Assembly (NCBI GenBank): GCA_038205305.1
Contig: JBBRBZ010000003.1
Location: 440 to 64,439 of the forward strand
Reading direction: 5' to 3'
DNA from: Gemmatimonadales bacterium
Lineage (GTDB): Bacteria; Gemmatimonadota; Gemmatimonadetes; Gemmatimonadales; GWC2-71-9
Length of the DNA stretch: 64,000 nucleotides
Positions 8,188 through 64,000 of this stretch are shown in pieces. Under the pieces are notes generated by a model, which saw only the letters and a list, made by a program, of their open reading frames with translations, had not been told where the DNA came from and did not search any database. Position 1 is the stretch's first letter. Each line of letters opens with the position of its first letter. A program made the translations under genes and the position numbers.

Positions 8188-8739
8188 ATGACCGCCAAAT
8201 TCCTCTTGCTCCCCCTTGTCCTCATGCCGCTGGTCGCCTGCGGCCCATCGACCGCGCAGATTCCGCCTGCCGCGGCACGCGGAATCTCCCCCACCAACGC
8301 CCCCGAATCGGTGGTCGCTCCGAGTGTGCCGGTGCTGGTCGGCATCCCGCAGGCCATCCGGGTCGGGCTAACCGTCTATCTGTCGGGGATGGTCCCGGTG
8401 GACTCGGCCGGTCGCCTCATCGGCGTCGGGGACCTGACGGCCCAGACTCGGCAGGCGCTCGCCAACCTCGTCGCGGTGGTCCGGGCGTCGCGCGGTGTCC
8501 CGGGCGACATCGTGAAGGTGACCGCCTACGTGAAGGGATTGGATCCGGTCAGCATTGCCGCGGTTCGCGCTGCGGTGCTCGAGGGCCTCGATCACGGTTC
8601 GCCGCCAGCCCTCACCGTGGTGGGGGTGGCCGAGCTACCCGAGCCGACCATGCGGGTGATGCTGGACGGAGTCGCCCAGCTGCGCAGTGAATTCCCCGAT
8701 CGCACCCGGATGGGGGCGGAACGCCGGGGTAGGAACTAG
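8188..8739 (+). CDS. RidA/YjgF/L-PSP family protein with lipoprotein-type signal peptide
   Basis: MTAKFLLLPLVLMPLVACG lipobox, then a RidA-like core (VYLSGMVPVD..G.L..GDLTAQTRQALANL, IVKVTAYV, P.LTVVGVAELP). Confidence 0.8.
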   Translation: MTAKFLLLPLVLMPLVACGPSTAQIPPAAARGISPTNAPESVVAPSVPVLVGIPQAIRVGLTVYLSGMVPVDSAGRLIGVGDLTAQTRQALANLVAVVRASRGVPGDIVKVTAYVKGLDPVSIAAVRAAVLEGLDHGSPPALTVVGVAELPEPTMRVMLDGVAQLRSEFPDRTRMGAERRGRN

Positions 8740-8744
8740 GTGAA

Positions 8745-8828
8745 GGAGATTGGAGAACGGAGAACAGAGAACGGAGGGGCGATATGGTCCGCACCCCAAT
8801 CTCCGTTCTCCAATCTCCGTTCTCCGTT
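8745..8828. repeat. Inverted heptamer-array element, GGAGAAC type, 5+5 units
   Basis: Left arm 8745-8779 is GGAGATT GGAGAAC GGAGAAC AGAGAAC GGAGGGG. Right arm 8794-8828 is CCCCAAT CTCCGTT CTCCAAT CTCCGTT CTCCGTT. Lies between convergent stops at 8739 and 8829. Confidence 0.9.
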
Positions 8829-9191
8829 TCAGTCGTGCTCCTGCCACAGCTCCACCCGGTGTCCTTCCGGGTCGTCGATCCAGGCGAAGTCACCATCCGC
8901 CGTTTCCTGCCGCTTCTCCACTGACACGCCGAGCTCCCCCAGCTGCTCCACGAAGGCATCGAGATCCTTCACTCGCCAGGTGATGGCCACTTGGCGTCGG
9001 TCGTGCCCGAGTGGGTGCTTGCTCTGTTGGATCGAGAACGGGGTGCCCGGAAGATCGCACCACCATTCATGACTGTCCGGTTCCCTGGTGAAGAAGAGGC
9101 CGAGGTGCTTCTCATACCAATGCGCGAGTGCGTCGGCCTGATCCGCAAAAATGACAACGCCACCAATGCCTGCCACGGTCTGCCGCTCCAT
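8829..9191 (-). CDS. VOC (glyoxalase/bleomycin-resistance) family protein
   Basis: 120 aa. IGGVVIFADQADALAHWYEKHLGL ... DAFVEQLGELGVSVEKRQETADGDFAWIDDPEGHRVELWQ, a typical single VOC module. Confidence 0.8.
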   Translation of the reverse strand: MERQTVAGIGGVVIFADQADALAHWYEKHLGLFFTREPDSHEWWCDLPGTPFSIQQSKHPLGHDRRQVAITWRVKDLDAFVEQLGELGVSVEKRQETADGDFAWIDDPEGHRVELWQEHD

Positions 9192-9276
9192 TCATCAACT
9201 CCGGTGCTCGAGAAAAGGGATGAGGTCCAGCCTACCAGCCACGTCGGTTGCGTGCGCTGTCGGAAAGCCTTGGAGG

Positions 9277-10428
9277 CTACGATGGAACGGGCCGTCCCAC
9301 AACCCGAGCCCAGCCGTCGGGATCCGTCGCACCTTCGGTGGACCAGACCAAGACGCGGGGACGCGGCGGAAGTGTCAAGTGAGCCAGCACGGCCGCGTAC
9401 GCCGGATCGGCGTGCAACGCGAGCAAGCCGGCCACGCTCGCCGCCCCTGATTCGCCGGCAACGATCACCGGTTCACCCGCCTGCGGCGTTGCCAGACGTC
9501 GCATCGCCGACTCGGCCCAGTGATCCGGAATCGCCATCAGCGCATCGGCGCCGCGGACGATCACCTCCAGCGCGCTCGTGGACGGCCAGCCGCAGTTGAG
9601 GCCGGCCATGATGGTCTGGAGCGATCCACGCGCTCGAGTCGGTTCGCCCGCTAGAGCGGAGGCGAGCACGCAGTCTGCGGCCACCGGCTCGACCACCAGG
9701 ATGCGCGGGCGGGCCCGGCCGTAGCGGTGCCAAAGGTAGGAGATGATTGAGGCCGGCCAGGTTCCGACGCCGGCATGCAGCATCACCAGGTCCACTTGCG
9801 GGACCTGCGGCGTCAGGAGCGTGGCCTCGAGCTCTCGGGCATGGGTCCAGTAGCCCGCGGCAATCCACTCCGGAATCTCGAGGTATCCTGGCCGTGCCAT
9901 GTCCTGGATGAGCACCCATCCCGATCGGGCCGCCGCCTCGTGTGCCCTCGCGACTGCGGCATCATACCCCTCATCGACGATCACGACCTCTGCGCCTTCG
10001 CGTGCAATCGCGTCGAGACGCGCCGGCGCGGTATTCCCCGGCACGAAGATCACCGCTCGTGCGCCATGTCGTTTCGCGCTCCACGCCACGGCGCGGCCGT
10101 GATTGCCGTCGGTCGCCGTGGTAAACGTCGGATCCTGGGCATCCGGGTGGGTGCCAAGCCAGTGGGCGATCGCGAAGGAGGCGCCAAGCCCCTTGAAGGC
10201 GTTCAGCCCGAAGCGCGATGACTCGTCCTTGAGGTGCAGCGCAGCCAACCCCAATTCGGCGGCAAGGCTTGGCAGTGCATGAACCGAGGTGGGGTGGTAC
10301 TCGGGCAGCCGGCGGTGAAAGTCCCAGGCGGCATCGGCGAGCGCTGGCAGACGGACGAGGTCCGCTGGGGCCTGCGGCGCGCCGACCAGGTGGAACAGCG
10401 GCGTCACCGCGACGACTGGTCCTGCCAC
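9277..10428 (-). CDS. dpaL: Diaminopropionate ammonia-lyase (PLP-dependent, fold type II)
   Basis: LHLKDESSRFGLNAFKGLGASFAI (Lys-PLP region), TATDGNHGRAVAW, GVGTW; 383 aa. Pattern as in YgeX/DpaL. Confidence 0.8.
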   Translation of the reverse strand: MAGPVVAVTPLFHLVGAPQAPADLVRLPALADAAWDFHRRLPEYHPTSVHALPSLAAELGLAALHLKDESSRFGLNAFKGLGASFAIAHWLGTHPDAQDPTFTTATDGNHGRAVAWSAKRHGARAVIFVPGNTAPARLDAIAREGAEVVIVDEGYDAAVARAHEAAARSGWVLIQDMARPGYLEIPEWIAAGYWTHARELEATLLTPQVPQVDLVMLHAGVGTWPASIISYLWHRYGRARPRILVVEPVAADCVLASALAGEPTRARGSLQTIMAGLNCGWPSTSALEVIVRGADALMAIPDHWAESAMRRLATPQAGEPVIVAGESGAASVAGLLALHADPAYAAVLAHLTLPPRPRVLVWSTEGATDPDGWARVVGRPVPS

Positions 10429-10480
10429 GGGAGCACCCTTCGGGCGAAGCGTGGTCCGCTGGTGGTGACGTGCTGTCCAC

Positions 10481-20047: not shown

Positions 20048-21276
20048 TGGCCCCTCGCCACCGCCGGAATGAATTGATCAAGCCCGCGTGGCGGAAACGC
20101 GAGCGTCTTGCCTTGTTCGGCACTCATGTAGGCGGTCATCAGGATCTGCATCACTGCCACGCCGTCCTGGAAGGTGAGCAACGGCTTCTCCTTCCCCAGG
20201 AACGCTCGCACGAAGTGGCGATCTTCGGCAACATAGCCATATGTCGCCGCCTCATCGGGCACCACCGGCATCAGCCCCATCTCGGCATTCTGTTTCTCGA
20301 CCAGGTCTTCACCGGCGGCGCCCCGCACCTCGCGCGAGAAGAAGCAGGAGAGCTCCGAATTGAGCGTGTTCCAGTTCATCGAGTATTCGGGCCCGAGCAG
20401 TTCGCCGGAGAGGCGGAGTCCCGGTCCGACAAAACTCCACGACGTCGTGGCCTCGCCGATGACCTGCGTCCCCTTGCTGTCTTCGTAGGTGATGGTGACC
20501 GACGCGAAGTCCTCCGACGGCCGCTTGCTATAGTCGACACTCTTGCCGAAGCGCGCCTTCAGCTGCTTGACGTATTCCGGACGGCTCCACTTGAGCGATG
20601 CGATCCGACCATTGATCGATACCGGCTTGAGCGACGCACGCGGCTTTCCCGGTTCGGTGAGCAGGAAGCGCACCACCTCGGCGGAGTGACACATCATGTC
20701 ATTCAGCACACCCCCACCCTGCTGCTCACCCTGCCAGAACCAGGCGTTGTGTGGCCCGGAGTGTTCCTCCGCGGCACGAGCAAGGTAGGGCCTGCCGGTG
20801 GTCTTGGCGCCGCGGGCCCAGATCAGGTCACGACCACGCACCAGGCCGGGTGAGAAGAGTTGGTTCTCGAGATAGCCGTGAGCGATGCCGGCCTTGGTCA
20901 CCAGGCGGAGCACCTCCTTCGCCTCGCCGACATTGCGGGCCAAGGGCTTCTCGCAAGCAATCCCGCGCAGCGTTCCCTTGCCGCGCGTCACCGCATCACA
21001 AATCTCCTCGACATTCTCGATTCGAGCTTGATTGGGACCACAGAGCCAGATCGCGTCGATCGCCGGATCAGTCACCATCTCGGTGATCGACCGATACGCC
21101 TTCGCTTCGCCGACGCCAAGACTGTTCGCCAGCGACGCCGCCGACGCCGCGTTCTTGCCGTTCGGACTCCACACGCCGCGGACATCGCCGTCGCGCACGC
21201 CAGTCCAACCCGCGATGTGGAAGCGGGTGTTGAAGCCGGAACCAATGAAGCCAACACCGAGTGGAGCCTTGGACAT
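20035..21276 (-). CDS. Gfo/Idh/MocA family NAD(P)-dependent oxidoreductase
   Basis: Start at MSKAPLGVGFIGSGFNTRFH (Rossmann GxGxxG). Motifs CEKPLARNVGEA, GGGVLNDMMCH. 13-nt overlap with ybjQ-like gene. Confidence 0.85.
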   Translation of the reverse strand: MSKAPLGVGFIGSGFNTRFHIAGWTGVRDGDVRGVWSPNGKNAASAASLANSLGVGEAKAYRSITEMVTDPAIDAIWLCGPNQARIENVEEICDAVTRGKGTLRGIACEKPLARNVGEAKEVLRLVTKAGIAHGYLENQLFSPGLVRGRDLIWARGAKTTGRPYLARAAEEHSGPHNAWFWQGEQQGGGVLNDMMCHSAEVVRFLLTEPGKPRASLKPVSINGRIASLKWSRPEYVKQLKARFGKSVDYSKRPSEDFASVTITYEDSKGTQVIGEATTSWSFVGPGLRLSGELLGPEYSMNWNTLNSELSCFFSREVRGAAGEDLVEKQNAEMGLMPVVPDEAATYGYVAEDRHFVRAFLGKEKPLLTFQDGVAVMQILMTAYMSAEQGKTLAFPPRGLDQFIPAVARGQWQP

Positions 21277-21291
21277 TGGACGAAGAACCTC

Positions 21292-21389
21292 GAGAGACGA
21301 GAGACGATAGACGAGAAACAAGGGGGGAATGGAAGAGAGTGCGTGTGCTGCGGCAAATTGCAGTTCGCCTCTCTCGCCTCTCGTCTCTC
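21292..21389. repeat. Inverted heptamer-array element, GAGAGAC type, 4+3 units
   Basis: Left arm 21292-21319 is GAGAGAC GAGAGAC GATAGAC GAGAAAC. Right arm 21368-21389 is CCTCTCTCGCCTCTCGTCTCTC. Lies between the stop at 21398 and the next start at 21276. Confidence 0.85.
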
Positions 21390-21397
21390 GGCTGTTG

Positions 21398-22018
21398 CTA
21401 TTTCACCAACCGATTCACCGCCGCTGCCGGGCATCCCTTCCACTCCGCCACGCCGGTGTTGCCCATGTACCCCACGTCCTTGATGCCGATCTTCGACGTA
21501 TAGAAACCGCTGGCGGTAAAGTCACGGAAGGAGTTGAACCAGTTCACACCGGCCATCAGTGCGCGCGGCGCCTTTGCGGGCCACGCGATGTCGTCGAGCA
21601 GCTGACGTCGCTGCGCGTCGGTGATGAGCGTGAAGAACTTGTTGTGCCGGTTGATGCTTTCGGTGTCGAGCCAGATCAGTCCGTTGCGGTGTCTGGTAAT
21701 CAATGGCGTATCGAGACCCAGCATCACGTCCATGAATTCCGGGACGCCAGCATCGGTGGCACTGCCGCTATGGCTGTCGCGCGGGATGATGTAGTCCACC
21801 AGCATCCGCACCGTCCCCCATTCCTGGGGTGTGAAGTTCTTCGGCTGGTACGCTACACCGCTCTCGGCAGCGGCGGTAATCGCTTGATGCGCCTGACGCA
21901 TTGCCTCACCAATATGCGGCGGGAGCAGGAAGGCGCCCGCAGCCATCGTCCCCATGGTGGAAAGCATGTCGCGCCGGCCCTGGTCCACGCCGGTCTCATC
22001 CTCGGAATGGTCGCTCAC
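21398..22018 (-). CDS. Gluconate 2-dehydrogenase subunit 3-family small subunit with Tat signal
   Basis: GTG (complement 22016-22018) overlaps the GMC stop (GTGA). Twin-arginine motif QGRRDMLSTMGTMAAGAFLL. Always paired with a GMC flavoprotein in this family. Confidence 0.75.
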   Translation of the reverse strand: MSDHSEDETGVDQGRRDMLSTMGTMAAGAFLLPPHIGEAMRQAHQAITAAAESGVAYQPKNFTPQEWGTVRMLVDYIIPRDSHSGSATDAGVPEFMDVMLGLDTPLITRHRNGLIWLDTESINRHNKFFTLITDAQRRQLLDDIAWPAKAPRALMAGVNWFNSFRDFTASGFYTSKIGIKDVGYMGNTGVAEWKGCPAAAVNRLVK

Positions 22019-23776: not shown

Positions 23777-23818
23777 GTCTCTCGTCTCTCGTCTCTCGTC
23801 TCTCGTCTCTCGTCTCTC
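23777..23818. repeat. Single-arm heptamer array (GTCTCTC)x6, perfect
   Basis: Six identical units counted directly and confirmed by the SRLSSLVSRLSSLV read-out in track ORF 23714..24694. Ends 3 nt from the stop at 23822. Confidence 0.95.
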
Positions 23819-23821
23819 GTC

Positions 23822-24658
23822 CTAGAATCGCAAATTGCTCAAATACTCATAACTCGCCTTGATACTCGTCAGTGGATCCGCCGGCGAGTCGTGCTCCACG
23901 AAGTAGTGCTTGATCCCCGCCTCCTTGTGCTTGGCAAAGATCTCCGCCCACTTGATGGTCCCCTTGCCGACGTCGCGCATCTGGTAGTCCGGCGGCGGCC
24001 CGGCGTCCTTCACGTGCACCATCGGGAAGCGCCCCGGCCATTTGGCAAAGTAGGCCAGCGGATCGCCGCCCCCCTTGGTGATCCAGTACAAGTCCATCTC
24101 GACCTGGAGCACGTCGGGAGAGGTCTCCTCCAGCAGCACATCGAAGACCCTGCGCCCCTCAACCAACCGGAACTCCGTTTCGTGGTTGTGGTAGGCGAGT
24201 TTGATCTTGTACATCTTGGCATCATCCGCCGCCTTGTGGATGATGTCGGCCGTCCGCTTGATGGCCTCGATCGAGTTGCGGTCGGCATCATCGAGCGAGG
24301 CGATCACCAGCCACTTGTGGCCCACCTCGGCGGCGTCATTGAGCGTCCTGTTCCAGGCACCCCGGATTTCCCGCATCCCCAGGTGGGCCGCCGGCGACTT
24401 CATCCCGTTGCGGTCGAGCAGCTGGCGGATGGCCCGGGGAGGCCGGTTGAAGTACCCGGCGAACTCGACCTCTTTGTACCCGATGTCGGCGACCTCGGCG
24501 AGCGTCTTCTCGACGCTCACCTGCATCAGGTCGCGCACGGTGTAGAGCTGCACCCCGATCTTCTTGATCTTGTCCTGCGCGTAGAGGTCGTTGCCGAGGG
24601 GGAGCAGCGAGGCGACCCCCGCGGCACCAAGGGCACCAACAAAGCTTCGACGATCCAT
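23822..24658 (-). CDS. Sugar phosphate isomerase/epimerase (xylose isomerase-like TIM barrel) with Tat signal
   Basis: Start at MDRRSFVGALGAAGVASLLPLG (twin-arginine). Motifs IGVQLYTVRD, GYKEVEFAG, LAYHNHETEF, QVEMDLYW. Confidence 0.85.
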   Translation of the reverse strand: MDRRSFVGALGAAGVASLLPLGNDLYAQDKIKKIGVQLYTVRDLMQVSVEKTLAEVADIGYKEVEFAGYFNRPPRAIRQLLDRNGMKSPAAHLGMREIRGAWNRTLNDAAEVGHKWLVIASLDDADRNSIEAIKRTADIIHKAADDAKMYKIKLAYHNHETEFRLVEGRRVFDVLLEETSPDVLQVEMDLYWITKGGGDPLAYFAKWPGRFPMVHVKDAGPPPDYQMRDVGKGTIKWAEIFAKHKEAGIKHYFVEHDSPADPLTSIKASYEYLSNLRF

Positions 24659-31615: not shown

Positions 31616-31654
31616 GGGTACGTCCTTGTGGAGGTCCGTCCTCGCCCCTCGCTT

Positions 31655-31675
31655 CTCCGTTCTCCGTTCTCCGTT
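31655..31675. repeat. Single-arm heptamer array (CTCCGTT)x3
   Basis: Three perfect units ending 3 nt before the Nif3-like stop (31679). Confidence 0.85.
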
Positions 31676-31678: not shown

Positions 31679-32446
31679 CTACATCCCCGTCGGATGATCG
31701 TGGAACTCGCACTTCAAGCCGAACTGCGCCGCGACCAGTTCACCCAGGGCCTTCACGCCAACCGTCTCCGTGGCGTAGTGACCGGCGTAGATGAGATTCA
31801 CGCCCCCCTCCAGCGCGTCGAAGGTGGTATGGTGACTCCCTTCGCCGGTGATGAAGGTGTCGAGCCCCGCCGCGGCCGCGGCCCCGACTCGCCCCCCTGC
31901 CCCACCAGTGATGATCCCGACCCTGGTGGTGGTCTCGGGACCGCCAGGCACCAGATGCACCCTGGTGTGGAGGAGTTCACCGATTCGGGTGACGAGGGTG
32001 TCCCGTGGCATGATCAGCACACCGGACGCTCCGAAGGGGAGCCCCTTGTAGCTGTCGAATGGCACCGGATCGAGCACGCCGAGCAGCTGGGCCAGCACGG
32101 CGTTGTTCCCCACCACTGGGTGCATGTCGAGCGGAAGGTGGCTGGAATAGAGTGCGATGTCCCGATCGAGCAGTGCCTTCACCCGGCGGTAGCGCCGATC
32201 AGTCATCGGGAGATTGCCATCCCAGAACAGTCCGTGATGCACCAGCAGCATGATGCCGGGGTCGCATTCCTGCACCACGCGATCGATCGTCTGCTGGGAC
32301 GCATCCACCGCCGACACGAAGCCGGTGACTTCACCGCTATTGCTCACCTGCAATCCGTTGAGCGCGCCATCATAGTCCGGGATGCGGGACGTCTCGAGGT
32401 AGCCATCGAGGTAGTCCACCACCGTGTCGAGCGCGATTGACCTCAT
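31679..32446 (-). CDS. Nif3-like dinuclear metal-centre protein (GTP cyclohydrolase I type 2 family)
   Basis: Start at MRSIALDTVVDYLDGYL. Motifs NGLQV, AVDASQ, LLVHHGLFW, LYSSHLPLDMHP, FITGEGSHH, AGHYATE. Confidence 0.85.
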   Translation of the reverse strand: MRSIALDTVVDYLDGYLETSRIPDYDGALNGLQVSNSGEVTGFVSAVDASQQTIDRVVQECDPGIMLLVHHGLFWDGNLPMTDRRYRRVKALLDRDIALYSSHLPLDMHPVVGNNAVLAQLLGVLDPVPFDSYKGLPFGASGVLIMPRDTLVTRIGELLHTRVHLVPGGPETTTRVGIITGGAGGRVGAAAAAGLDTFITGEGSHHTTFDALEGGVNLIYAGHYATETVGVKALGELVAAQFGLKCEFHDHPTGM

Positions 32447-33377: not shown

Positions 33378-34171
33378 TTAGATGCCTCCTCGCCCTTGTG
33401 AAGCGCCTCGGTGCGTTTGATCAACTCCTGGGCGACAGCGAGGTAGCTCTTGGCGCCAATGGACTGGACGTCATAGAGCAGGATCGGCTTCCCGAACGAC
33501 GGCGCTTCGGCCAAGCGGACATTGCGCGGGATGACGGTACGGAAGACCGTGGGCCCGAAGTACTCCCGCGCCTCGCTCACCACCTGCTTGGAGAGATTGA
33601 GACGGGCGTCATACATGGTGAGGAGGACGCCGTCGATGGCGAAGTCGGGGTTGAAGTTCTGCTGTACGAGGCGTATCGTGTTGATAAGTTGCGAGATACC
33701 TTCCAACGCATAGTACTCGCACTGGATCGGAATGATCACGGCATCGGCTGCAGTCAGAACGTTCAGCGTCACCAAGCCAAGGGATGGCGGGCAGTCGATC
33801 AGGATGTAGTCGTAGTCGTCCTGGACCGTCGCGAGCGCTCTGCGCAATATCGTCTCCCGTTCGCCGATCGCCACCAGCTCGATCTCCGCCCCAATCAGGT
33901 CTTGGGTGGCTGGGATCACATGGAGGAAGGGGAGCTGTGGATCGTGACGGATCACCTCGCTCACTGGCATCGAGTCAATCATCACGTCGTAGAGCGACCG
34001 CTCCACCGCCCCCTTCTCAATGCCGACCCCAGATGTGGCGTTCCCCTGTGGGTCAGCGTCGATCAGCAGCGTTCTCCGCTCCCCGATAGCCAGGGAGGCA
34101 GCGAGGTTCACGGCGGTGGTGGTCTTTCCAACCCCACCCTTCTGGTTGGCAATCGCGATCGTTCTGGCCAT
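33374..34171 (-). CDS. parA: Chromosome partitioning ATPase ParA/Soj
   Basis: Start at MARTIAIANQKGGVGKTTTAVNLAASLA (deviant Walker A; ATG complement 34169-34171). The rest of track ORF 33374..34480 reads through repeats. 4-nt overlap with parB. Confidence 0.95.
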   Translation of the reverse strand: MARTIAIANQKGGVGKTTTAVNLAASLAIGERRTLLIDADPQGNATSGVGIEKGAVERSLYDVMIDSMPVSEVIRHDPQLPFLHVIPATQDLIGAEIELVAIGERETILRRALATVQDDYDYILIDCPPSLGLVTLNVLTAADAVIIPIQCEYYALEGISQLINTIRLVQQNFNPDFAIDGVLLTMYDARLNLSKQVVSEAREYFGPTVFRTVIPRNVRLAEAPSFGKPILLYDVQSIGAKSYLAVAQELIKRTEALHKGEEASK

Positions 34172-34243: not shown

Positions 34244-34327
34244 GGAGAGGAGAACGGAGAACAGAGGACAGAGAACAGAGGACAGAGAACGGAGGGCGGA
34301 GGGCGGAGGGCGGAGGGCGGAAAACGG
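34244..34327. repeat. Heptamer array, purine arm, 12 units (longest in window)
   Basis: Units are GGAGAGG AGAACGG AGAACAG AGGACAG AGAACAG AGGACAG AGAACGG, then AGGGCGG x4, then AAAACGG. Confirmed by the read-out in track ORF 33398..34360. Confidence 0.9.
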
Positions 34328-34348
34328 ATGACGCAGCAGAAGCGGGTT

Positions 34349-34364
34349 CGTTTCACGTGAAACG
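34349..34364. promoter_or_regulatory. parS: parS centromere-like site (ParB binding)
   Basis: CGTTTCACGTGAAACG is a perfect 16-bp palindrome. It matches the canonical TGTTNCACGTGAAACA at the inner 14 positions and lies about 180 bp upstream of parA. Confidence 0.85.
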
Positions 34365-34553
34365 TGCCCTTTCGATGCCGGGGCCAGGCGACCACCAACC
34401 GGGTACCACCCGTTCCTCGATCGATAACGATACATTCGACCGTAAACAATTACACCGCAAACACTTACTAGTAGCAGCACAACAAACTACTTCACTACGA
34501 TAGCGCCACACAAACAGTTCCTCGAGACTTCAGGCGACTCGGATCCTCCACCC

Positions 34554-35906
<1,353 letters not shown>

Positions 35907-37253: not shown

Positions 37254-37669
37254 CCGCAGTGAGCGTCGAAAGCGGTGATGAGGTCCGCCGCGACCTGCTC
37301 CGCCGAGCGCCCCTCGATCTGGTGCCGATGGACGAAGGCCACCACCTCGCCCCCCTTGAGCAGGGCGACCGACGGCGATGACGGCCGGTACTCACCGAAG
37401 TAAGAGCGCGCCCGCGCCGTGGCCTCAAGATCCTGCCCGGCAAAGACCGTGTAGCTCTTGTTCGGAAGCTTGGCGTTGGCCAGTGCCTTGGTGAGCGCCG
37501 GACGAGCCATGCCCGCCGCACAGCCGCACACCGAATTGACGAACACCAGCGCAGTGCCTTCATGGGCAGCGAGCGCGGCGTCGACATCGGCGACGGTACG
37601 AAGTTCCTGCACGCCGAGGCGAGTGACTTCCTCACGCATCGGCTTGACCATCATTTCTGGATACGGCAT
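37250..37669 (-). CDS. Bacilliredoxin BrxA/BrxB (YphP/YqiW, DUF1094) family thiol-disulfide protein
   Basis: Start at MPYPEMMVKPMREE. Active-site CGC in VFVNSVCGCAAG; motifs YTVFAGQD, PSSPSVALLKGGE. Confidence 0.8.
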   Translation of the reverse strand: MPYPEMMVKPMREEVTRLGVQELRTVADVDAALAAHEGTALVFVNSVCGCAAGMARPALTKALANAKLPNKSYTVFAGQDLEATARARSYFGEYRPSSPSVALLKGGEVVAFVHRHQIEGRSAEQVAADLITAFDAHCG

Positions 37670-37697: not shown

Positions 37698-37791
37698 GGA
37701 GAATAGAGAACAGAGAACAGAGAACAGAGAACCGCGAACAACCGCCCGTCCCCCAGCTCAATCCTCCGTTCTCCGTTCTCCGTTCTCTGTC
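37698..37791. repeat. Inverted heptamer-array element, GGAGAAC type, 6+4 units
   Basis: Left arm 37698-37739 is GGAGAAT, AGAGAAC x4, CGCGAAC. Right arm 37764-37791 is CTCCGTT x3 then CTCTGTC. The right arm lies inside the last codons of sufU. Confidence 0.9.
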
Positions 37792-40752: not shown

Positions 40753-41516
<764 letters not shown>

Positions 41517-41534: not shown

Positions 41535-41603
41535 GGAGAACAGAGAACAGAGAACGGAGAACGGATGGTCCGGGTCGCCCCGTTCTCCGTTCTCCGTTCT
41601 CCG

Positions 41604-41607
<4 letters not shown>
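41535..41607. repeat. Inverted heptamer-array element, GGAGAAC type, about 5+4 units, between sufB and sufC
   Basis: Left arm is GGAGAAC AGAGAAC AGAGAAC GGAGAAC GGATGGT. Loop is about 10 nt. Right arm is CCGTTCT x3 then CCGTCAT, whose TCA is the complement of the sufB stop codon. Confidence 0.9.
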
Positions 41608-48566: not shown

Positions 48567-48869
48567 GTGGTGATTTCGGCGGAACTGGCGCGCAAGGCGC
48601 TCCGAGCAGTGAAAGACCCGGAACTCGGCCTGAATGTCATCGACATCGGGCTGATCTACGATATCGACGTCGACGAGGCTGGGGTGGTGCACGTCAAGAT
48701 GACGCTGACCTCACCGGGTTGCCCGTCGAGCGGCGAGATCATGGATGATATTCGTCAGACACTCGCCGACCTCGAAGGGGTGACGTCGGTTGATCTGGAG
48801 CTGGTGTGGGAGCCGTACTGGACGCCGGAGAAGATGGATCCAAGGGTACGGGCGTTTCTGGGGCATTAG
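48567..48869 (+). CDS. DUF59 / SufT-like metal-sulfur cluster assembly factor
   Basis: GTG at 48567 after GGGGGAGGGAA. VKDPELGLNVIDIGLIYDI, MTLTSPGCPSSGEI, VWEPYWTPEKM. Confidence 0.85.
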   Translation: MVISAELARKALRAVKDPELGLNVIDIGLIYDIDVDEAGVVHVKMTLTSPGCPSSGEIMDDIRQTLADLEGVTSVDLELVWEPYWTPEKMDPRVRAFLGH

Positions 48870-48908
48870 AGACGAGAGACGAGAGACGAGAGACGAGAGA
48901 CGAGAGAC
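48867..48908. repeat. Single-arm heptamer array TAGAGAC + (GAGAGAC)x5
   Basis: The first unit contains the TAG stop of the DUF59 gene. Exact reverse complement of the 23777-23818 array units. Confidence 0.95.
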
Positions 48909-48940
48909 GCGGGAAGCTACCAACTGCGTCGAAGGCTCAA

Positions 48941-51054: not shown

Positions 51055-53404
<2,350 letters not shown>

Positions 53405-53405
<1 letters not shown>

Positions 53406-56248
53406 TAGCTTTTCGCGTCCATCCAATTATCTCCAATCCCCACCGTCACCAGCAGCGGCACACTCAGCGATGCGGCGCCTTCCATGTGCTCCTTGACGAG
53501 GGCGGCGGTGGCATCGGCTTCGGCGGCCGGGGCCTCGACCACGAGTTCGTCGTGCACCTGGAGCAGCAGCCGCGACTGCAGGCCGGCGGCCGGCAGGGCG
53601 TGGTGAATGCTGATCATGGCGAGCTTGATCAAGTCGGCCGCGGAGCCCTGCAACGGCGTATTCTGCGCCGTGCGCTCGCCGAAGGAGCGGATGTTGAAGT
53701 TGCGATCGTTGATTTCGTTGATGTAGCGTCGCCGCCCGAAGAGGGTTTCGACGTAGCCTTTGTCGCGCGCAATGGTCACCTGATTGTCGAGGAAGGCGCG
53801 CACGCCGGCGAATCGGGTGAAGTAGTCGCCGATGAAACGCTTGGCCTCCTCCTGCGTGATCCCCAGCTGTTTGGAGAGCGCGAACGGTCCCTGCCCATAG
53901 ATGGTGCCGAAGTTGATGGTCTTGGCCCGCGCGCGCATCTCGCTGGTCACCTCGGTGAGCGGCACGCCGAAGATGATGGCCGCGGTCTGCCGATGAATGT
54001 CCTCGCCCCGACGGAACGCCTCAATGAAGGCTGGATCGCCCGAGAGGTGCGCCATCAGGCGCAACTCGATCTGCGAGTAGTCGGCCACCACAAATTTCCA
54101 GCCGCGTTGGGGAATGAAGCCCCGTCGGATCGCCTCGCCGCGCGGTGAGCGAATGGGAATGTTCTGGAGGTTGGGATCGGTCGAGGAGAGCCGACCGGTC
54201 TGCGCGCCGACCTGATTGAACGAGGTGTGAATCCGCCCGGTCTCACGATTGACCTTGGTGGGAAGCACGTCGACGTAGGTGCTCTTCAGTTTTTGCAACT
54301 CACGATAGGCCAGGATCCGCTTGGGGAACTCGTGCCCCATCTCGGCGAGCTGCTCGAGCACGTCGGCGTCGGTCGACGGACCGGTCTTGGTCTTCTTGAG
54401 GACGGGGAGGCCAAGGTCGGTGAAGAGGATCACCGCCAGCTGACGGGGCGAATTGATGTTGAGCGGCTTGTCGCCGGCCATCTGCTGGATTTCCTGCTCC
54501 AGCAACTGAAGATCGTGCGCCAGCTCTCGGCCGAGCCGCGCGAAGTGCTCGCCGTCGATGGCAATCCCGGCCCATTCCATGTCGACCAGCACGGGGAGCA
54601 GCGGCAACTCGATCTGTTCGAGCAGCGGTCGCAGCGCGGTGCGGTCGAGATCGGGGGAGAAGATCTCGTGCAGTCCGAGCACGGTCGCGCTGTCGGCGCC
54701 GCAGTACTTGGCGGCCTTCTCCACCGGAACCTCGGCGAAGGGTATCTGTGACTTTCCCTTGCCGGTGAGATCGGTGTACTGCGTCATCGTCTGGCCGAGG
54801 AACTCGAGGGCCAGCGCGTCGAGGCCGAAGGAGCGCCGTGAGGGGTCGAGGACGAACGCGGAGAGCATGGTGTCACAGGCGATACCCGCGACCTCGATGC
54901 CGGCGCGGCGCAGCACCTGGACGTCGTACTTGAGGTTGTGTCCTGCCTTGGGCACCGTGGCGTCGCGGAGAAGGTCGGCGATCGGGGCGCAGCGTGCGTC
55001 GGTGATCGGCGGCAGGTTCCTCACCGTCACGCTGGGCGAAGAGTCGGTCTGTTCCTCAGGAAAGAGCCCCTGCATCGGCGCGCGGTGCCCGAACGGGAGG
55101 TACCAGACCTCGGTCGGGCTCGCGGCCAGTGACAAGCCGATGAGCTCGGCGTCGTGCGGCTCGAGTGAGGACGTCTCGGTGTCGATGGCCAGCAGCGGCG
55201 CCTGTCGCAGCCGGGCGGCGAGAGCGGGCAGCGCGGTCGGATCGTCCACCACGGGCACCACGAGCTCGGGCACCGGCGGCAGGATCGCTGCTGCGACGGC
55301 CACGCCGTCGGCCGACGCTGGATCGGCGCCCGTGGTCACGCCACCCCCCAGACGATCGACCCGCGACATCAGCGAATGGAATTCCAGCTCGGCACAGAGC
55401 TTCGCCAGCGCCTGACGATCGGGGGGCTCGATCTCCGCGGCGGCGAGATCGAGTTCGACCGGCACGTCGAGCATGATGGTCACCAGCTGCTTGGAGAGCC
55501 TTGCCATGTCGGCTTGGGTCTCGAGCGCCGTGCGGGACCGCTTCTGCTTCACCTCGGAGACGTGCTCGAGAATCGCCTCGAGCGAGCCGAATTCCTGCAG
55601 CAGCAGGACAGCGCCCTTCTCACCAATGCCCTTCACGCCGGGCACGTTGTCGGAGGAGTCGCCGAGCAGGGCGAGATAGTCGCGCACCTGGGAGGGCGGC
55701 ACACCGAGTCGGTCGGAGGCATTCGCCTCGGTGACCCACACTTCGTCGACGCCCGCGGGGCCGCCGCGACCGGGGTTGAGCAGGGTGACGCCAGGGCGAA
55801 TCAGCTGGTAGAAGTCCTTGTCGCCGGAGACGATCACGGCCTCGAGTCCGCTGGACGCCGCCTTCACGGCGAGCGTTCCGATCACGTCGTCGGCTTCGTA
55901 GCCATCAACCTCGACCAGGGGAATGCGGAACGCGGCGAGCAGCGCGCGGACCCGCTCGACGGCCGTGTCGAAATCGGCCTGCAACTCGGCGTCGAGCTTT
56001 TCGCGGGTGGACTTGTACTCGGCGTACGCCGCGGTGCGGAACGAGTCGCCTGCATCGTTGACCCAGAGCAGGTAGTCGGGGCGGTACTTCTCGCGCAGAC
56101 GGAGGAGAAAGTTGATGACGCCCCACGCCGCCGAGGTGTTCTCTCCCTTGGCGGTGCGAAGCGGCCGGCTGATGAGGGCGAAGAACGCCCGGTAGATGAG
56201 CGCGTAGCCGTCGATCAGGAACAGTTGCGGCGGATCGTGCTCCGGCAT
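53405..56248 (-). CDS. polA: DNA polymerase I
   Basis: 947 aa. 5'-nuclease N-terminus (LFLIDGYALIYRAFFA), a 3'-5' exonuclease-like domain and polymerase motifs (DYSQIELR, RRxAKTINFGxIYG, QVHDELV). Confidence 0.97.
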
Positions 56249-58627: not shown

Positions 58628-58630
58628 CCC

Positions 58631-59419
58631 ATGCCTGCGGCCCATGACGCGCTCGTGGCGCTGCTCAAGCAGCGCTCGGTGAAGTTCGGCGATTTCACCC
58701 TCGCCTCCGGCGCCAAGTCCGACTGGTACATCGATTGTCGCCTCACCACCATGTCAGCACAGGGCCAGCACTTGATCGGCCGCATTGGTCTCGAGGCGAT
58801 CTTGGCGGCGCAGTGGTCGCCGCGCAGCGTCGGCGGGCTCACCATGGGCGCCGATCCGGTGAGCTACGCCATCGCGGCGGCGAGCGCGGGGCGCCACATC
58901 GATCCGATCGATGCCTTCTCGGTGCGCAAGGAAGCGAAGCAGCATGGCACCGGCCGACGCATCGAGGGGAACTTCGCCGCCGGTGACGCGGTGGTGGTGA
59001 TCGAAGATGTGATCACCTCGGGCGCCTCGGCCCTGCTGGCCATCGACGCCGTGCGCCACGAGGGCGGCACGGTCATCGGTGTGCTGGCGGTGGTCGATCG
59101 CGAGGCGGGTGGCGTGGAGAAGATCGAAGCCGCCGGGGTGCCGGTCGTCGCGCTCGTGAAGGCGAGTGAGCTTCGAGCACCGTGTTGGGGGGGGCGACGA
59201 ATGCGTCGCCCCCGCCATGCACGTGCCTCCTCGCCCCTCCGTTCTCCGTCATCCCCTCCCCGGCGCCAACGGCCGGAACTGCCGCCACAACTGGACATGC
59301 GGGCGCACGAATCGCGACAGAAATCGATCGAGCACCATCGAGAAAGGAAAGCGCGCCCGGAATTCACTCGGCGTGATTCCCAACACCACGCGCAGGTGTC
59401 GACCGAACGATTGTGGTGA
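58631..59419 (+). CDS. pyrE: Orotate phosphoribosyltransferase; 3' boundary doubtful
   Basis: FGDFTLASGAKSDWYIDCR, PRPP loop VVVIEDVITSGAS. The conserved part ends near 59175. The ORF continues about 80 codons (Arg/Pro-rich) into the convergent regulator gene before the first stop. Confidence 0.8.
   Translation: MPAAHDALVALLKQRSVKFGDFTLASGAKSDWYIDCRLTTMSAQGQHLIGRIGLEAILAAQWSPRSVGGLTMGADPVSYAIAAASAGRHIDPIDAFSVRKEAKQHGTGRRIEGNFAAGDAVVVIEDVITSGASALLAIDAVRHEGGTVIGVLAVVDREAGGVEKIEAAGVPVVALVKASELRAPCWGGRRMRRPRHARASSPLRSPSSPPRRQRPELPPQLDMRAHESRQKSIEHHRERKARPEFTRRDSQHHAQVSTERLW
59237..59250. repeat. Two-unit heptamer remnant (CTCCGTT CTCCGTC)
   Basis: Same CCGTTCTCCGTCATCCC string as at the sufB stop (41594-41610). 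The TCA is the complement of the regulator stop codon. Confidence 0.6.
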
Positions 59420-60221: not shown

Positions 60222-60607
60222 CGGGTTGGACGCGATGATCGCGGTCCTGGGCGCGAGCCCGGGGTCGAGGAAAGTCCGAGCTCCACAGGGCAGATCGCCA
60301 GGTAACGCCTGGGCACCGCAAGGTGACGGACAGGGCAACAGAGAACAGACCGCCGATGGCCCGGCGCGCAAGCAACGGGATCAGGCAAGGGTGAAACGGT
60401 GGGGTAAGAGCCCACCGCCTCTCATGTAAGTGAGGGGGCACGGCAACCCCCGGTCGGAGCAAGGCCAAATAGGCGGCAAGGTGCGGCCCGCACCGTCTGA
60501 GCCGCGGGTAGGCTGCTCGAGGCCGTCGGCGACGACGGTCCCAGACAGATGATCATCTCCCAAGCCTCACGGCGAGGGAAACAAAACTCGGCTTACGGTC
60601 CGACCCG
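60222..60607 (+). ncRNA. rnpB: RNase P RNA, bacterial type A
   Basis: Near-identical to universally conserved blocks: GAGGAAAGTCCGAGCTCCACAGGGCAG, CCAGGTAACGCCTGGG, ACAGAGAACAGACCGCCGATGGCC, GATCAGGCAAGGGTGAAACGGTGGGGTAAGAGCCCACCG, GGAGCAAGGCCAAATAGG, GGTAGGCTGCT, ACAAAACTCGGCTTAC. Ends set by P1 pairing CGGGTTGGAC / GTCCGACCCG. Confidence 0.95.
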
Positions 60608-60642
60608 CGCGCCCCTCGATGCCTCTGGCCTCGAGGGGCGCG
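60608..60642 (+). terminator. Hairpin immediately after rnpB
   Basis: CGCGCCCCTCGA-11 nt loop-TCGAGGGGCGCG, a perfect 12-bp stem, followed by ATTGTGTGG. Confidence 0.65.
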
Positions 60643-61698: not shown

Positions 61699-62553
61699 AT
61701 GCGGTTCTTGGACCTGAAGTGCTCACCACGAAAGCTGTTGGCCCTCACCTTCGGCACACTGCTGGCTGCCTGCGGCGGAAAGCCACCAGTCACCACCCCG
61801 ACGCCAACGACATCCCGGGCCGCCACAGTCAGGATGGCGATGGGCTGGAGCGCCGCCGTGACGCTCAGTCGCAACGACTCGATCGTGCTGACCATGCCGG
61901 GCAACGAGACACAGCTGCAGCAGACCAGCCGCCGGGCCGCCTTCACCCTGACGGTGGATCAGCGCGGTGGGATGACGCTTCGGCTCGACTCCCTCAGTCT
62001 GGTCCCTTTTCCGGAGCGGGCCTCCATCCCGATGGTTGGAACGGTCTGGACCGGGCGGATGCTGGGCAACCGGGTGGAGTGGTACGCGACCGCCGGGGCC
62101 GGGCCAGTGATCGAGAATCTGACGACTGACATCGCCGGTTTCTTCCCCCATTTGCCGGCTGGCGGAGTCAGCCCCTCCTCCCGCTGGAGCGATACATCGA
62201 CATCGCGGGGCAGGGTAGACATCTTCGAGACCAGCGAGCGTTCCACGGCGAACTGGGTTGCCGGGGCCGACACGCTAATTTTGGGGCAGCCGGGACTGTT
62301 GATCACGGAGGAGCGCTCGCTGGAACAGTCCGGCAAGGGCGCAGAGGGGAGCATGACGATGTCGATGACAGGACAGGGCGTTCGTAGTAACACATACTAC
62401 CTAAGGACAAGCGGGGAAATTTCCTCGGTAACCCGTCGTGACTCGATGGCCGTGCTGATCAGCGTCCCCGCGTCGCACCAGCTCGTCCCCACGACCCGGT
62501 TCATCCGGAGCAAGGTGGTCTTTTCGCCGATGATGCGTGGCCGCACTCCGTAA
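61699..62553 (+). CDS. Hypothetical lipoprotein
   Basis: Start at MRFLDLKCSPRKLLALTFGTLLAACGG (lipobox) with GGAG upstream. Loosely similar layout to the preceding gene. Confidence 0.6.
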   Translation: MRFLDLKCSPRKLLALTFGTLLAACGGKPPVTTPTPTTSRAATVRMAMGWSAAVTLSRNDSIVLTMPGNETQLQQTSRRAAFTLTVDQRGGMTLRLDSLSLVPFPERASIPMVGTVWTGRMLGNRVEWYATAGAGPVIENLTTDIAGFFPHLPAGGVSPSSRWSDTSTSRGRVDIFETSERSTANWVAGADTLILGQPGLLITEERSLEQSGKGAEGSMTMSMTGQGVRSNTYYLRTSGEISSVTRRDSMAVLISVPASHQLVPTTRFIRSKVVFSPMMRGRTP

Positions 62554-63355
62554 GAAACGGAGCCTGCTGCGAAAGCTCCTCCTCGGCCTGGTGTTGGCGG
62601 TGGGGCTCTTCGTCATCTGGCTTTTCGCGGTCTGGCCCCCGCCACTCTGGTATCGCTTTGCCTTCCCCCACGAGACGGCGTTCATGGCGATGCGGCGCCA
62701 CGAGGACCCGCTCGCGGCCACCAAGCGGCGCTACCAGCCGGTCCCGATGGAGCAAATCGCCCCGGCGCTGACGCGGGCCGTGATGATCGGCGAGGACAAT
62801 CGCTTCTACGACCACGGCGTCTTCGACTGGGTGGAAGTCCGCCATGCCATGGGATATCCGCGCGATTCCTTCGCCTGGGGCAGTGCCCGGGATCGCGGCG
62901 AGCTCTGGCGAAGCTACCGGCGCACCATGGCGGGCAAGAAGCCAATGCGCGGCGCCAGCACGCTCACCCAGCAGCTCGCGAAGAACCTCTACCTCTCCCC
63001 CTCCCGGAACCCGCTCCGCAAGGTCAAGGAGGCGTTCACCGCCTGGCGGCTCGAGCTCTGGCTCCCCAAGGACCGGATCATGGCGCTCTACCTCAACACC
63101 GCCGAGATGGGCAACGAGGTGTGGGGGGCAGAGGCGGCGAGCCGACTCTATTTTGGGAAGGGTGCGCGCGCGCTCTCCTCAGAAGAGGCGGCGACCTTGG
63201 CTGGCCTGCTGCCATTTCCGCGGAGTAGTAATCCCAACTACCGACCAGGAAGAATGGCTTGGCGGCGGGATCTGATTTACCAACGGATGACGGGGAGGAG
63301 TGTAGAGGTACCTGTGGATACTACTAGCATTGTGGGGGCGGACAGCCTCAGGTGA
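62537..63355 (+). CDS. mtgA: Monofunctional peptidoglycan glycosyltransferase (GT51)
   Basis: GTG start, N-terminal TM anchor. GT51 motifs IGEDNRFYDHGVFDW, GASTLTQQLAKNLYL, RKVKEAFTAWRLE, ILALYLN-type MALYLNTAEMG. Confidence 0.9.
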   Translation: MAALRKKRSLLRKLLLGLVLAVGLFVIWLFAVWPPPLWYRFAFPHETAFMAMRRHEDPLAATKRRYQPVPMEQIAPALTRAVMIGEDNRFYDHGVFDWVEVRHAMGYPRDSFAWGSARDRGELWRSYRRTMAGKKPMRGASTLTQQLAKNLYLSPSRNPLRKVKEAFTAWRLELWLPKDRIMALYLNTAEMGNEVWGAEAASRLYFGKGARALSSEEAATLAGLLPFPRSSNPNYRPGRMAWRRDLIYQRMTGRSVEVPVDTTSIVGADSLR

Positions 63356-63474
63356 ACGGTGAACGGTGAACGGTGAACGGTGAACGGAACCGAGAACGAA
63401 GTCGGCTGAAGGGTAAAAGGAAGGGGCCATCTTTCTGGCCCCCACCGTTCTCCAATCTCCGTTCTCTGTTCTCC
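63351..63474. repeat. Inverted heptamer-array element with GGTGAAC-type left arm and GTTCTCC-type right arm
   Basis: Left arm is (GGTGAAC)x5 at 63351-63385, decaying to GGAACCGAGAACGAAG. Central perfect 7-bp hairpin GGGGCCA/TGGCCCC at 63423-63442. Right arm 63443-63474 is CACCGTT CTCCAAT CTCCGTT CTCTGTT CTCC. Confidence 0.9.
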
Positions 63475-63478
63475 AGCG

Positions 63479-64000
63479 TTATCGGCCGCAGCTCGGCATG
63501 CTGGGATCTGCTCCGCTGATGGCGGGGCGATCGGCCCGATCGGCGACGGCGGTCATCACGCGGTGGATGAAGCGGCCGAGGCGGGCGGCGTGGTCGTAGT
63601 CGATGTACTGCGGCTCGTCGGTCGGCTGGTGGTAGTCACGCGCGTAGCCGAGCGAGAAGTAGGTGACAGGGATGTTGTGGTTGACGTAGTTGACCTGGTC
63701 GGAGCGGCAGAAGCGGTTGAGCGGGTTGGCCGGGATGTCCCAGGTCTTGTCGATCGCCATCGGTTCGGCGCTGATGGCGTTGACCGAGTCGATGATGTTG
63801 CCAAACTCGTAGGAGAGCCGTCGCGAGCCGAGGGTCTGGACCGACGCCGGGCCACCCATGTCGACGTCGGTGACGCGACCCTTGCCGAGCATATCCATGT
63901 TGTGGGCCGCCACGACCGAATCGAGTGGAATGGTCGGGTGCGCGGTGAACCACGCCGAACCGAGCAGGCCGGCTTCTTCGCCCTGGTGCGAAATGAAGAT
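63479..64000 (-). CDS. M28 family metallopeptidase; N-terminus lies outside the window
   Basis: The frame stays open to the window edge (..ISHQGEEAGLLGSAWFTAHPTIPLDSVVAAHNMDMLG..). Motifs FCRSDQVNYVNHNIPVTYFSLG, DYHQPTDE. Confidence 0.8.
   Translation of the reverse strand: MFISHQGEEAGLLGSAWFTAHPTIPLDSVVAAHNMDMLGKGRVTDVDMGGPASVQTLGSRRLSYEFGNIIDSVNAISAEPMAIDKTWDIPANPLNRFCRSDQVNYVNHNIPVTYFSLGYARDYHQPTDEPQYIDYDHAARLGRFIHRVMTAVADRADRPAISGADPSMPSCGR

Follow-up and report, generated by a model that had tools for sequence, protein, structure and literature searches.

The 64,000-nucleotide window analysed here (positions 440 to 64,439 of contig JBBRBZ010000003.1, assembly GCA_038205305.1) comes from a Gemmatimonadales bacterium and carries 11 loci of tandem 7-nt repeats, seven with two inverted arms and four with a single arm. 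At all 11 loci at least one array edge lies within 7 nt of a genuine stop codon or overlaps it, and the purine version of the repeat is in the sense of the gene whose stop is touched (the MMPL gene reads its arm before the stop). Our preferred reading, held with about even confidence, is that the arrays are hypervariable heptamer microsatellite palindromes akin to REP/REPIN elements, endowed with an intrinsic polarity and held by selection to the stop side of gene junctions. The stop-codon rule would then be the product of palindrome polarity and of purifying selection: with about 5% of the genome non-coding, an array would persist only 3' of an open reading frame (ORF) and upstream of the ribosome-binding site or promoter of the next gene.

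Array loci and their distance from stop codons

Arrays were detected with Tandem Repeats Finder (TRF) and period-7 scans of our own, which returned the same loci as an earlier reading of the DNA from its letters alone (the sequence-only reading) and no others. TRF reports period 7 at 10 loci (3.3–12 copies, perfect runs of up to 6.4 copies), and at least three head-to-tail 7-nt units are present at 10 loci. With the loci numbered A1 to A11 along the window, A10 has only two units, was not detected objectively and is a marginal case. Eight or nine loci have GGAGAAC and close variants as their units, three have GAGAGAC, and one arm has GGTGAAC; allowing at most two mismatches, (GGAGAAC)2 was found 43 times, distributed over 9 loci, against 0.6 expected, and all occurrences except one lie inside the array loci. 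Flanking genes were identified with Pfam and NCBIfam, and each stop codon was read directly. Gene calling relied on a codon-position composition score checked against Pfam-confirmed genes, a crude caller that missed several genes; calling by longest ORF was dropped, as it fails in DNA of 65% GC. The comparison sets comprised five syntenic loci with gene calls (L109, L110, L111/L112, L113 and L114/L115) and a cross-phylum set of 108 loci with (GGAGAAC)n, whose genes come from our own caller.

Non-coding DNA amounts to 3,344 nt of the window (about 5%), of which 747 nt are array. Without the arrays, 8.4% of the non-coding positions of the window have a stop no more than 7 nt away, and under uniform insertion the probability that all 11 loci fall so close is ~1e-12; relative to such insertion, their position is thus far from random. 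Arrays are present at 5 of 10 convergent and 6 of 40 co-directional junctions and at none of the 8 divergent ones (convergent versus the rest, 6/48, Fisher p=0.015). Array-free convergent spacers measure 2–12 nt, save one overlapping pair, and array-free co-directional junctions are mostly 4-nt overlaps. Overlap with coding sequence is confined to the SufU and MMPL tails; the arrays are otherwise intergenic and, as is typical of long simple sequence repeats (SSRs), depleted between divergent ORFs. Because only about 5% of the DNA is non-coding, and promoters and ribosome-binding sites are kept, little room is left for arrays except directly past stops. The six co-directional loci have a start codon 14–73 nt from their far edge, so the earlier claim that every array abuts a stop holds for each locus, but not for each arm.

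Three of the two-arm loci lie between genes that both end at the array. A1 (8740–8828) separates the RidA and VOC genes. Its purine arm (8740..8779, + strand; GTGAAGG AGATTGG AGAACGG AGAACAG AGAACGG AGGGG) is directly 3' of the RidA stop TAG (8737–8739), and its pyrimidine arm (8796..8828), which provides the purine version in the VOC mRNA (− strand), is flush with the VOC stop TGA (8829–8831); the variant unit GGAGATT is mirrored in both arms. A9 (53295–53404) lies between MMPL and polA. The purine arm (53295..53327, +; (GGAGAAC)4.7) is translated as the MMPL tail, which ends in KENGERRTENGDPRSER, and the MMPL stop TAG (53344–53346) follows 17 nt past the arm; the second arm (53378..53404, −) gives the purine version in the polA mRNA and borders directly on that gene's stop TAG (53405–53407). 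At A11 (63351–63474), between mtgA and the M28 peptidase gene, the mtgA stop TGA (63353–63355) falls within the first unit of the (GGTGAAC)5.3 arm (63351..63387, +), and the other arm (63445..63474, −), with units GGAGAAC, AGAGAAC and GGAGATT in the M28 mRNA, lies 4 nt past the stop TAA (63479–63481). The A11 loop holds a canonical-looking terminator hairpin (63422..63443, −), GGGGGCCAGAAAGATGGCCCC followed by TTCCTTTT.

At the other two-arm loci one arm meets a stop on the − strand and the other is purine-rich on the + strand and faces a start. In A2 (21291–21393; GAGAGAC type), the arm at 21365..21393 (−), with the purine version in the − strand mRNA, lies 4–7 nt past the stop TAG (21398–21400) of gluconate 2-dehydrogenase subunit 3; the gene had been called a Tat small subunit at 8 nt, of which the distance stands and the identity does not. 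The arm at 21291..21319 (+) faces no stop: the gene beside it, taken earlier for an MFS permease ending 7 nt away, is a GFO/IDH/MocA oxidoreductase whose start ATG (21274–21276, − strand) lies 14 nt off. The arms of A5 (34249–34597) are 218 nt apart and may be separate arrays. The proximal one (34552..34597, −), (GGAGAAC)6 in the − strand mRNA, holds the ABC-2 permease stop TAG (34594–34596) within its terminal unit GTAGAAC, and the distal one (34249..34333, +), with 12 units (GGAGAAC, AGAGGAC and GGAGGGC), lies ~75 nt upstream of the parA start (34169–34171, −). At the sufU/brx junction, A6 (37699–37790) has one arm (37762..37790, −) whose purine version in the suf mRNA is translated as the SufU tail (four units), ahead of the SufU stop TGA (37758–37760), and a second (37699..37739, +; AGAGAAC x4) that gives the pyrimidine version in this mRNA, ~29 nt upstream of the bacilliredoxin-like start (37667–37669). 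A7 (41535–41606), at the sufB/sufC junction, has its purine version in the suf mRNA at 41578..41606 (−), with the sufB stop TGA (41604–41606) within the unit-like GGATGAC, and a pyrimidine version at 41535..41565 (purine-rich on +), 18 nt upstream of the sufC start (41514–41516).

The single arms follow the same arrangement. A3 (23777..23821, −), which reads (GAGAGAC)6 in the − strand mRNA, directly adjoins the stop TAG (23822–23824) of a xylose-isomerase-like TIM-barrel gene and is also 22 nt upstream of a GMC oxidoreductase start. A4 (31653..31675, −), (GGAGAAC)3 in the − strand mRNA, lies 3 nt past the NIF3 stop TAG (31679–31681) and is followed by GCGAGGGGCGAGGA, a motif it has in common with A10. 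In A8 (48867..48909, +), TAGAGAC followed by (GAGAGAC)5, the first three bases are the DUF59 stop TAG; the convergent beta-lactamase gene stops 63 nt past A8 and reads the pyrimidine version, 63 nt past its own stop. The mini-array A10 (59237..59251, −) reads GGATGAC GGAGAAC in the AraC mRNA, with the stop TGA (59249–59251) within the first unit, and is followed by GGAGGGGCGAGGA and a GC hairpin (59190–59213). At all four the purine version is in the mRNA of the stop-abutting gene, as had been noted.

The array-to-stop distances given by the sequence-only reading are right to ~3 nt (RidA 0–5, VOC 0, TIM-barrel 0–3, NIF3 3 and M28 4 nt). Its list of stops inside terminal units stands for the ABC-2 permease (GTAGAAC), SufB and AraC (GGATGAC), DUF59 (TAGAGAC) and mtgA (GGTGAAC), polA being merely flush. 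SufU and MMPL do read units as their last codons, both tails being array-encoded, but the order of stop followed by array fails at MMPL, where the arm is coding.

Palindrome polarity and hairpin structure

On the + strand all seven two-arm loci read purine arm, loop, pyrimidine arm. Since this layout reads identically on both strands, a stop followed by the purine version is automatic at two-arm loci, and their orientation is a fixed palindrome polarity, not a per-gene rule. Together with the four single arms, the polarity is the same at 11 of 11 loci in the window (p=0.001). The G-rich arm also comes first in all Gemmatimonadota elements collected (15:0) and in all except one from other phyla (17:1), which gives 32:1 overall (p=8e-9). 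What the first arms have in common is an excess of G over C and not their purine content, as illustrated by the units GGTCGAT, GTCGTGA and GGCGACA.

In the 108-locus set, arrays that touch a stop (≤10 nt) are in purine rather than pyrimidine sense by 22:5, or 21:6 for single arms alone. The bias is gone farther than 10 nt from the stop and stands at 16:19 beyond 50 nt. Purine-sense edges cluster from −6 to +9 nt relative to the stop, and 20 of 38 reach it or lie inside (≤0), a range in which no pyrimidine-sense edge falls; none of the latter overlaps a stop. Purine-type units become stop codons by one substitution (TGAGAAC, GTAGAAC, GGTGAAC, TAGAGAC) and pyrimidine-type units cannot, which would be why only the purine version overlaps stops. 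The rule of position and orientation, described as strict by the sequence-only reading, is so in the window but not elsewhere: pyrimidine arrays touch stops in L018, L032, L035 and L051, and the exceptions come from metagenome-assembled genomes (MAGs) of Acidobacteriota, Acidimicrobiia and Planctomycetota.

The two-arm elements fold as long hairpins, with minimum free energies of −38 to −63 kcal/mol (z −3 to −8.8). A GC clamp results from GGGG at the end of most purine arms and CCCC just ahead of most pyrimidine arms. When transcribed, they would form stem-loops of 20–35 bp directly past the stop. Given that these hairpins are very stable, an effect as terminator or 3' stabiliser is physically plausible, and so is such a role; a likely consequence, in the manner of REP elements, would be a barrier to 3' exonucleases or partial bidirectional termination. 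In our view this effect is a by-product or an occasional co-option and not the reason why the arrays exist.

The opposite view and strongest rival, that the arrays are selected as bidirectional terminators independent of a U-tract or as 3' stabilisers, is possible, though we think it improbable. The purine arm, GC clamp and pyrimidine arm would be the high-GC counterpart of an A-tract, stem and U-tract, and the purine-first layout would place pyrimidine-rich RNA in the transcription bubble at hairpin closure, with release in either direction. Of the classes of RNA:DNA hybrid, the one that pairs pyrimidine-rich RNA with purine-rich DNA is the weakest. The strong hairpins directly past stops, the clamp atop most stems, the convergent enrichment (5/10 versus 6/48), a 32:1 polarity like that of A-tract/U-tract terminators, the canonical terminator within the A11 loop and a sufB/sufC hairpin kept in three species despite a change of unit all agree with it. 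However, six of the 11 loci are co-directional, including sufB/sufC and sufU/brx, and termination at sufB/sufC would starve sufC, because the pairs are translationally coupled in L113 and L114. The single arms A3, A4 and A8 cannot form a hairpin, 135 single arms show no hairpin enrichment beside them, and the occurrence of one unit at many loci is left unaccounted for. Nor is there a consistent G·U advantage for the sense strand among the elements compared: stability is higher for the sense strand at A6 and A7, for the antisense strand in L109, L110 (sufU) and L111, and for neither at A2 and L110 (sufB); the lack of this signature fits a palindrome at the level of DNA.

The comparison with known bidirectional intrinsic terminators is similarly divided. 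They share with the arrays a GC stem, complementary 5' purine and 3' pyrimidine tracts, the position past stops and the convergent enrichment, whereas the arrays lack the U-tract that follows the stem-loop of an intrinsic terminator, despite their strong stems, and the stems are much longer and often inside operons. A scan for hairpins followed by a T-run between 50 and 64 kb returned 10 cases against 6.8 expected, and at arrays flagged only the inner hairpin of A11. A candidate rule prompted by A10, A11, L007 and L066, that single arms always flank a central GC hairpin, was rejected in its general form, since folding energy did not differ between the two sides of the 135 single arms (Wilcoxon p=0.25). 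The inner motif GGAGGGGCGAGGA has 7 matches against 5.4 expected, which is not significant. Outside the arrays a single motif recurs, GGGG.../GAGGGGCGAGGA at the inner end, and by itself it is not above chance.

Polarity could also arise from an orientation filter linked to transcription, in one of two versions: C-rich, G-poor RNA past a stop would be a Rho loading site and be purged, or R-loops on nascent G/purine-rich RNA no longer covered by ribosomes would drive repeat growth from the stop. The shared excess of G over C in first arms, the bias of single arms (21:6) and the coincidence of the array boundary with the end of translation are in keeping with this account. Yet a Rho filter should not act between convergent genes, where the polarity is the same, and both versions are purely inferential; we regard the account as quite unlikely.

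Orthologous junctions and unit turnover

The SufB encoded in the window has 477 aa, and all its close relatives (85–97% amino-acid identity) come from Gemmatimonadales/Gemmatimonadota MAGs; together with the synteny to the contig L021 (below), this makes the host an uncultured Gemmatimonadales bacterium. The genomes compared are 72–83% identical to the window over sufBCDS and form two clades, one with the window, L109 and L110, the other with L111 and L114. At the sufB/sufC junction, L113 and L114 have an ATGA overlap without an array. The window has TGA, (GGAGAAC)3, a loop and (GTTCTCC)4; L109 has TAA followed by arms of GAGAGAC type, L110 has TAG followed by arms of GGTGAAC type, and L111 has TAG, (GTCGTGA)4, a loop and (TCACGAC)5. 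Four species thus use four different units, each in a two-arm element with the G-rich arm first and touching the stop, and by the tree derived from the identity matrix the element was gained at least twice. SufC begins with MALL in every genome compared. In L114/L115 SufC is called with 274 aa (L114 7434–8258), as against 247–255 aa elsewhere, with the same N-terminus.

Presence and absence vary in the same manner at other junctions. The sufU/brx array is present in the window and L110 and absent from L109, L111 and L113. The DUF59/beta-lactamase array is present in the window, L111 and L114 and absent from L110, L113 and L021, a Gemmatimonadales MAG contig syntenic with the window over 43–51.6 kb; the array-free spacers at this junction measure 1–12 nt. 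Conversely, L021 has a (GGAGAAC) array past the stop of a patatin-like orthologue, at which the window spacer is 5 nt. By this comparison, the arrays are insertions into spacers that otherwise measure 0–12 nt or overlap. Gene content differs at the site of A8: in L109 (4505–4718), the closest relative, no DUF59 (FeS_assembly_P) gene is called in the interval from RNase D to beta-lactamase, and the beta-lactamase ORF of L109 has a different, longer C-terminus.

The orthologue comparison suggested with the sequence-only reading was carried out, and both the stop position and the C-terminus are unchanged for SufB, the ABC-2 permease, NIF3, DUF59 and PolA. By contrast, the SufU and MMPL tails vary among species: those in the window are array-encoded (37758–37790 and 53295–53346), of ENGERRTEN type and with heptapeptide periodicity, and the orthologue tails are unrelated and of similar length. 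The ORF-side boundary of the array hence tracks protein constraint, since conserved C-termini are unchanged and variable tails array-encoded. In the mechanism that we favour, a conserved tail would leave the array flush with the native stop or containing it, and a variable tail would be overwritten. Insertion at or beside stops, as had been suggested, is then apt as a description, given the overlapping or 1–12 nt array-free orthologue junctions, and a stop-specific mechanism of insertion would be hypothetical.

The same junctions bear on a ribosome landing or retention site of Shine-Dalgarno type (SD-like) acting on recycling or re-initiation. GGAGAAC does repeat the SD core GGAG every 7 nt directly past stops, and (GGAGAAC)n occurs in many phyla. 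The idea, put forward in the sequence-only reading, is nevertheless disfavoured and in our judgement very improbable, because the units found at these sites in sister genomes lack GGAG (GAGAGAC, GGTGAAC and GTCGTGA in L109, L110 and L111; GGTCGAT is also among the sister units). Three loci of the window itself are GAGAGAC and one arm is GGTGAAC. In place of a GGAGG-type core 5–10 nt before a start, the purine arm is 45–100 nt away from the next start and pairs with the pyrimidine arm that stands between, and four or five loci are convergent, with no downstream cistron.

Each genome has its own dominant units, and rare variants recur within a genome: in the window, the unit GGAGATTGGAGAAC is found in A11 and in both arms of A1, and GGATGACGGAGAAC at the sufB and AraC stops. 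Rare variants shared at unlinked loci and genome-specific units argue for copying or conversion between loci and not for independent slippage at each site. The closely related L111 and L112 differ at 87 of 21,437 positions (0.4%), and five of these differences fall within 158 nt of arrays, where 0.64 are expected (P=5e-4), a substitution rate ~8x that of the flanks. All five convert a unit into another unit variant at the same copy number. The unit-variant substitutions are located at 2279–2281, 6605 and 11493; those at 2279 and 2281, only 2 nt from each other, make GAGAATG out of GCGAATG, a pattern suggestive of conversion rather than point mutation. No array change is seen in the near-identical pair L114/L115. 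An initial description of turnover as very fast was toned down, the relatives being only 72–83% identical (sufBCDS) and the L114/L115 arrays unchanged.

Beyond the phylum, (GGAGAAC)n was found in MAGs of Gemmatimonadota, Acidobacteriota, Planctomycetota, Kiritimatiellota, Bacteroidales, Treponema and Chloroflexi. More than 108 stretches with (GGAGAAC)3 occur in many phyla, counted at one genome per species with no control unit alongside, so that exceptionality cannot be deduced from this number. The 108-locus set was itself ascertained with GGAGAAC, and the consensus of co-occurring units there is therefore uninformative. In L028, L031, L034 and L107, (GGAGAAC)n is at the very end of the MAG contig; arrays of this kind thus break short-read assemblies.

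Dispersal of this sort could also be the work of a mobile element targeted to stops and comparable to REPIN/RAYT or IS200/IS605; its enzyme would recognise stop codons or a single-stranded DNA or hairpin context at gene ends. The same unit and its variants at unlinked loci, the genome-specific unit families, the precise insertion at native stops and a DNA-level palindrome without an RNA strand signature would all follow. In Kiritimatiellaeota MAGs, moreover, (GGAGAAC)n forms the central part of a longer dispersed repeat, flanked on either side by a fixed GC hairpin (GGGGCGnnnnCGCCCC hairpin, array, AGAACGCCCCTGCGGGGCGAC hairpin), that has many copies per genome (L001, L004, L026, L072, L074, L078, L082, L083, L091, L094 and L097). 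We nonetheless consider such an element unlikely. No transposase, target-site duplication or conserved termini were seen, the distance to the stop varies from −57 to +9 nt together with the phase of the stop within the unit, and arrays in other phyla often face starts (95 edges). As in miniature inverted-repeat transposable elements, the arms are inverted repeats; filled and empty sites showed no target duplication and no conserved junction, but come from genomes only 72–83% identical, too distant for duplications to be readable.

Several findings weigh against the reading of the arrays as REP/REPIN-like palindromes under positional selection. Among the genes identified in the 64 kb there is no transposase or RAYT (Y1) gene. 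One unit at eight or nine unlinked loci is beyond local slippage and would call for a copying mechanism or selection acting in trans, and a pure tolerance filter does not account for the 32:1 polarity, even between convergent genes. Three species with ~80% nucleotide identity keep both the sufB/sufC two-arm hairpin and the purine run past the ABC-2 stop, with the unit changed in both arms; this resembles compensatory maintenance, and the hairpin could be selected. The stop distances in the cross-phylum set, finally, depend on a crude gene caller. The spread of one unit through a genome and the absolute polarity are accounted for by no reading so far.

Known repeat systems and neighbouring features

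The closest published parallel is provided by the GGGAATC arrays of Xanthomonas and the GGGGA(C/T)T arrays of Nostoc, which are intergenic, rare between divergent genes and mostly 0–50 bp past stops on the coding strand, some overlapping the stop (Rehm 2015, PLoS One, PMC4692102). Each Xanthomonas genome has about 70 'convergent' inverted pairs, in which the G-rich arm leads, and array positions are conserved across species while length and sequence vary (PMC4692102). The rule of position and orientation is therefore already published for Xanthomonas and Nostoc, and the arrays described here follow the same rule: tandem 7-nt units, the G-rich sense strand past the stop and inverted pairs with the G-rich arm first, in Xanthomonas likewise at high GC. 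The Gemmatimonadota arrays differ in phylum, in units without G-tracts and in a unit that changes between species at the same junction. The G-quadruplexes favoured in that study (PMC4692102) are inapplicable here, because GGAGAAC, GAGAGAC and GGTGAAC have no GGG and cannot form them; a quadruplex takes at least four tracts of at least three G, which only A5 provides with its four GGAGGGC units.

Among long SSRs, the class that includes the present arrays, heptamers are the most frequent kind according to Mrazek 2007, as summarised in PMC4679880. In marine Beggiatoaceae, cyanobacteria and some Bacteroidetes, TAACTGA repeats mostly precede starts by a few nt in forward orientation, with inverted pairs at 1/170, and have been proposed as binding sites of a translational regulator (MacGregor 2015, PMC4679880). 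They resemble the present arrays as intergenic, cross-phylum heptamer arrays (2–6 copies), some of which overlap the upstream stop, the unit having stops in all frames, and differ in pre-start position, forward orientation and near absence of inverted pairs. A preprint on Nostoc heptamers near promoters offers no mechanism, and literature searches for GGAGAAC and for heptamers of Gemmatimonadetes/Gemmatimonadota found nothing specific. Cyanobacterial STRR (short tandemly repeated repetitive) heptamers were reportedly described in Calothrix and Anabaena by Mazel et al. in 1990. They share tandem arrangement, several families per genome, intergenic and intra-operon positions and lineage-specific units with the present arrays, and differ in low-GC hosts, other units and few inverted pairs; a stop-abutment rule is not known to have been described for them.

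The REP/BIME/REPIN elements of Proteobacteria are extragenic palindromes; REPs are fixed sequences of 20–40 nt, and a RAYT transposase recognises their conserved GTAG-type end. The arrays share with them the character of genome-specific, dispersed 3'-end palindromes, present in operons and at convergent junctions and absent from promoters, that occur as inverted pairs and singlets and give stem-loops at mRNA 3' ends. They differ in that the arms are tandem heptamers of variable length, in place of a fixed unit with a terminal tetranucleotide.

That heptanucleotide repeats are in excess in bacterial genomes has been known since 2007, and no explanation is generally accepted. To this the present data add that the stop-abutting, G-rich-first rule holds for units unable to form G-quadruplexes, which removes the published structural explanation; that palindrome polarity is nearly absolute across phyla; that species place different units at the same junction, both arms being changed together; and that arrays can rewrite unconstrained C-termini into ENGERRTEN-type tails. 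A wider proposal, which we judge rather unlikely, is that purine-first heptamer palindromes form a cross-phylum structural class, whose 32:1 polarity and start at the end of translation reflect a general mechanism. If so, candidates would be bidirectional termination through a weak hybrid independent of a U-tract, or R-loop-driven growth where ribosome cover ends, and some copying activity would spread one unit through the genome. In annotation, the arrays cause miscalled starts and stops and contig breaks in MAGs.

The window has a GC content of 62–69% and probably spans or adjoins a replication origin. The cumulative GC skew has its minimum at 36–38 kb, adjoining parS/parAB. In the spacer upstream of parA-parB, CGTTTCACGTGAAACG at 34349–34364 is a near-consensus parS site (consensus TGTTNCACGTGAAACA), and the core TTTCACGTGAAA is also present upstream of parA in L109, L110, L111 and L113.

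The PyrE ORF (58631–59419, +) is covered by TIGR00336 over aa 11–180 and has no stop near its expected end. It extends for ~75 codons more, through the GC hairpin at 59190–59213 (preceded by a run of eight G), pyrimidine-type units and AraC antisense, and this extension is either a genuine longer tail or an assembly error in the G run. Rfam and tRNA scans of the window returned nothing at the arrays and no tRNA gene; their sole match is a class A RNase P RNA gene at 60222–60611 on the + strand (275 bits).

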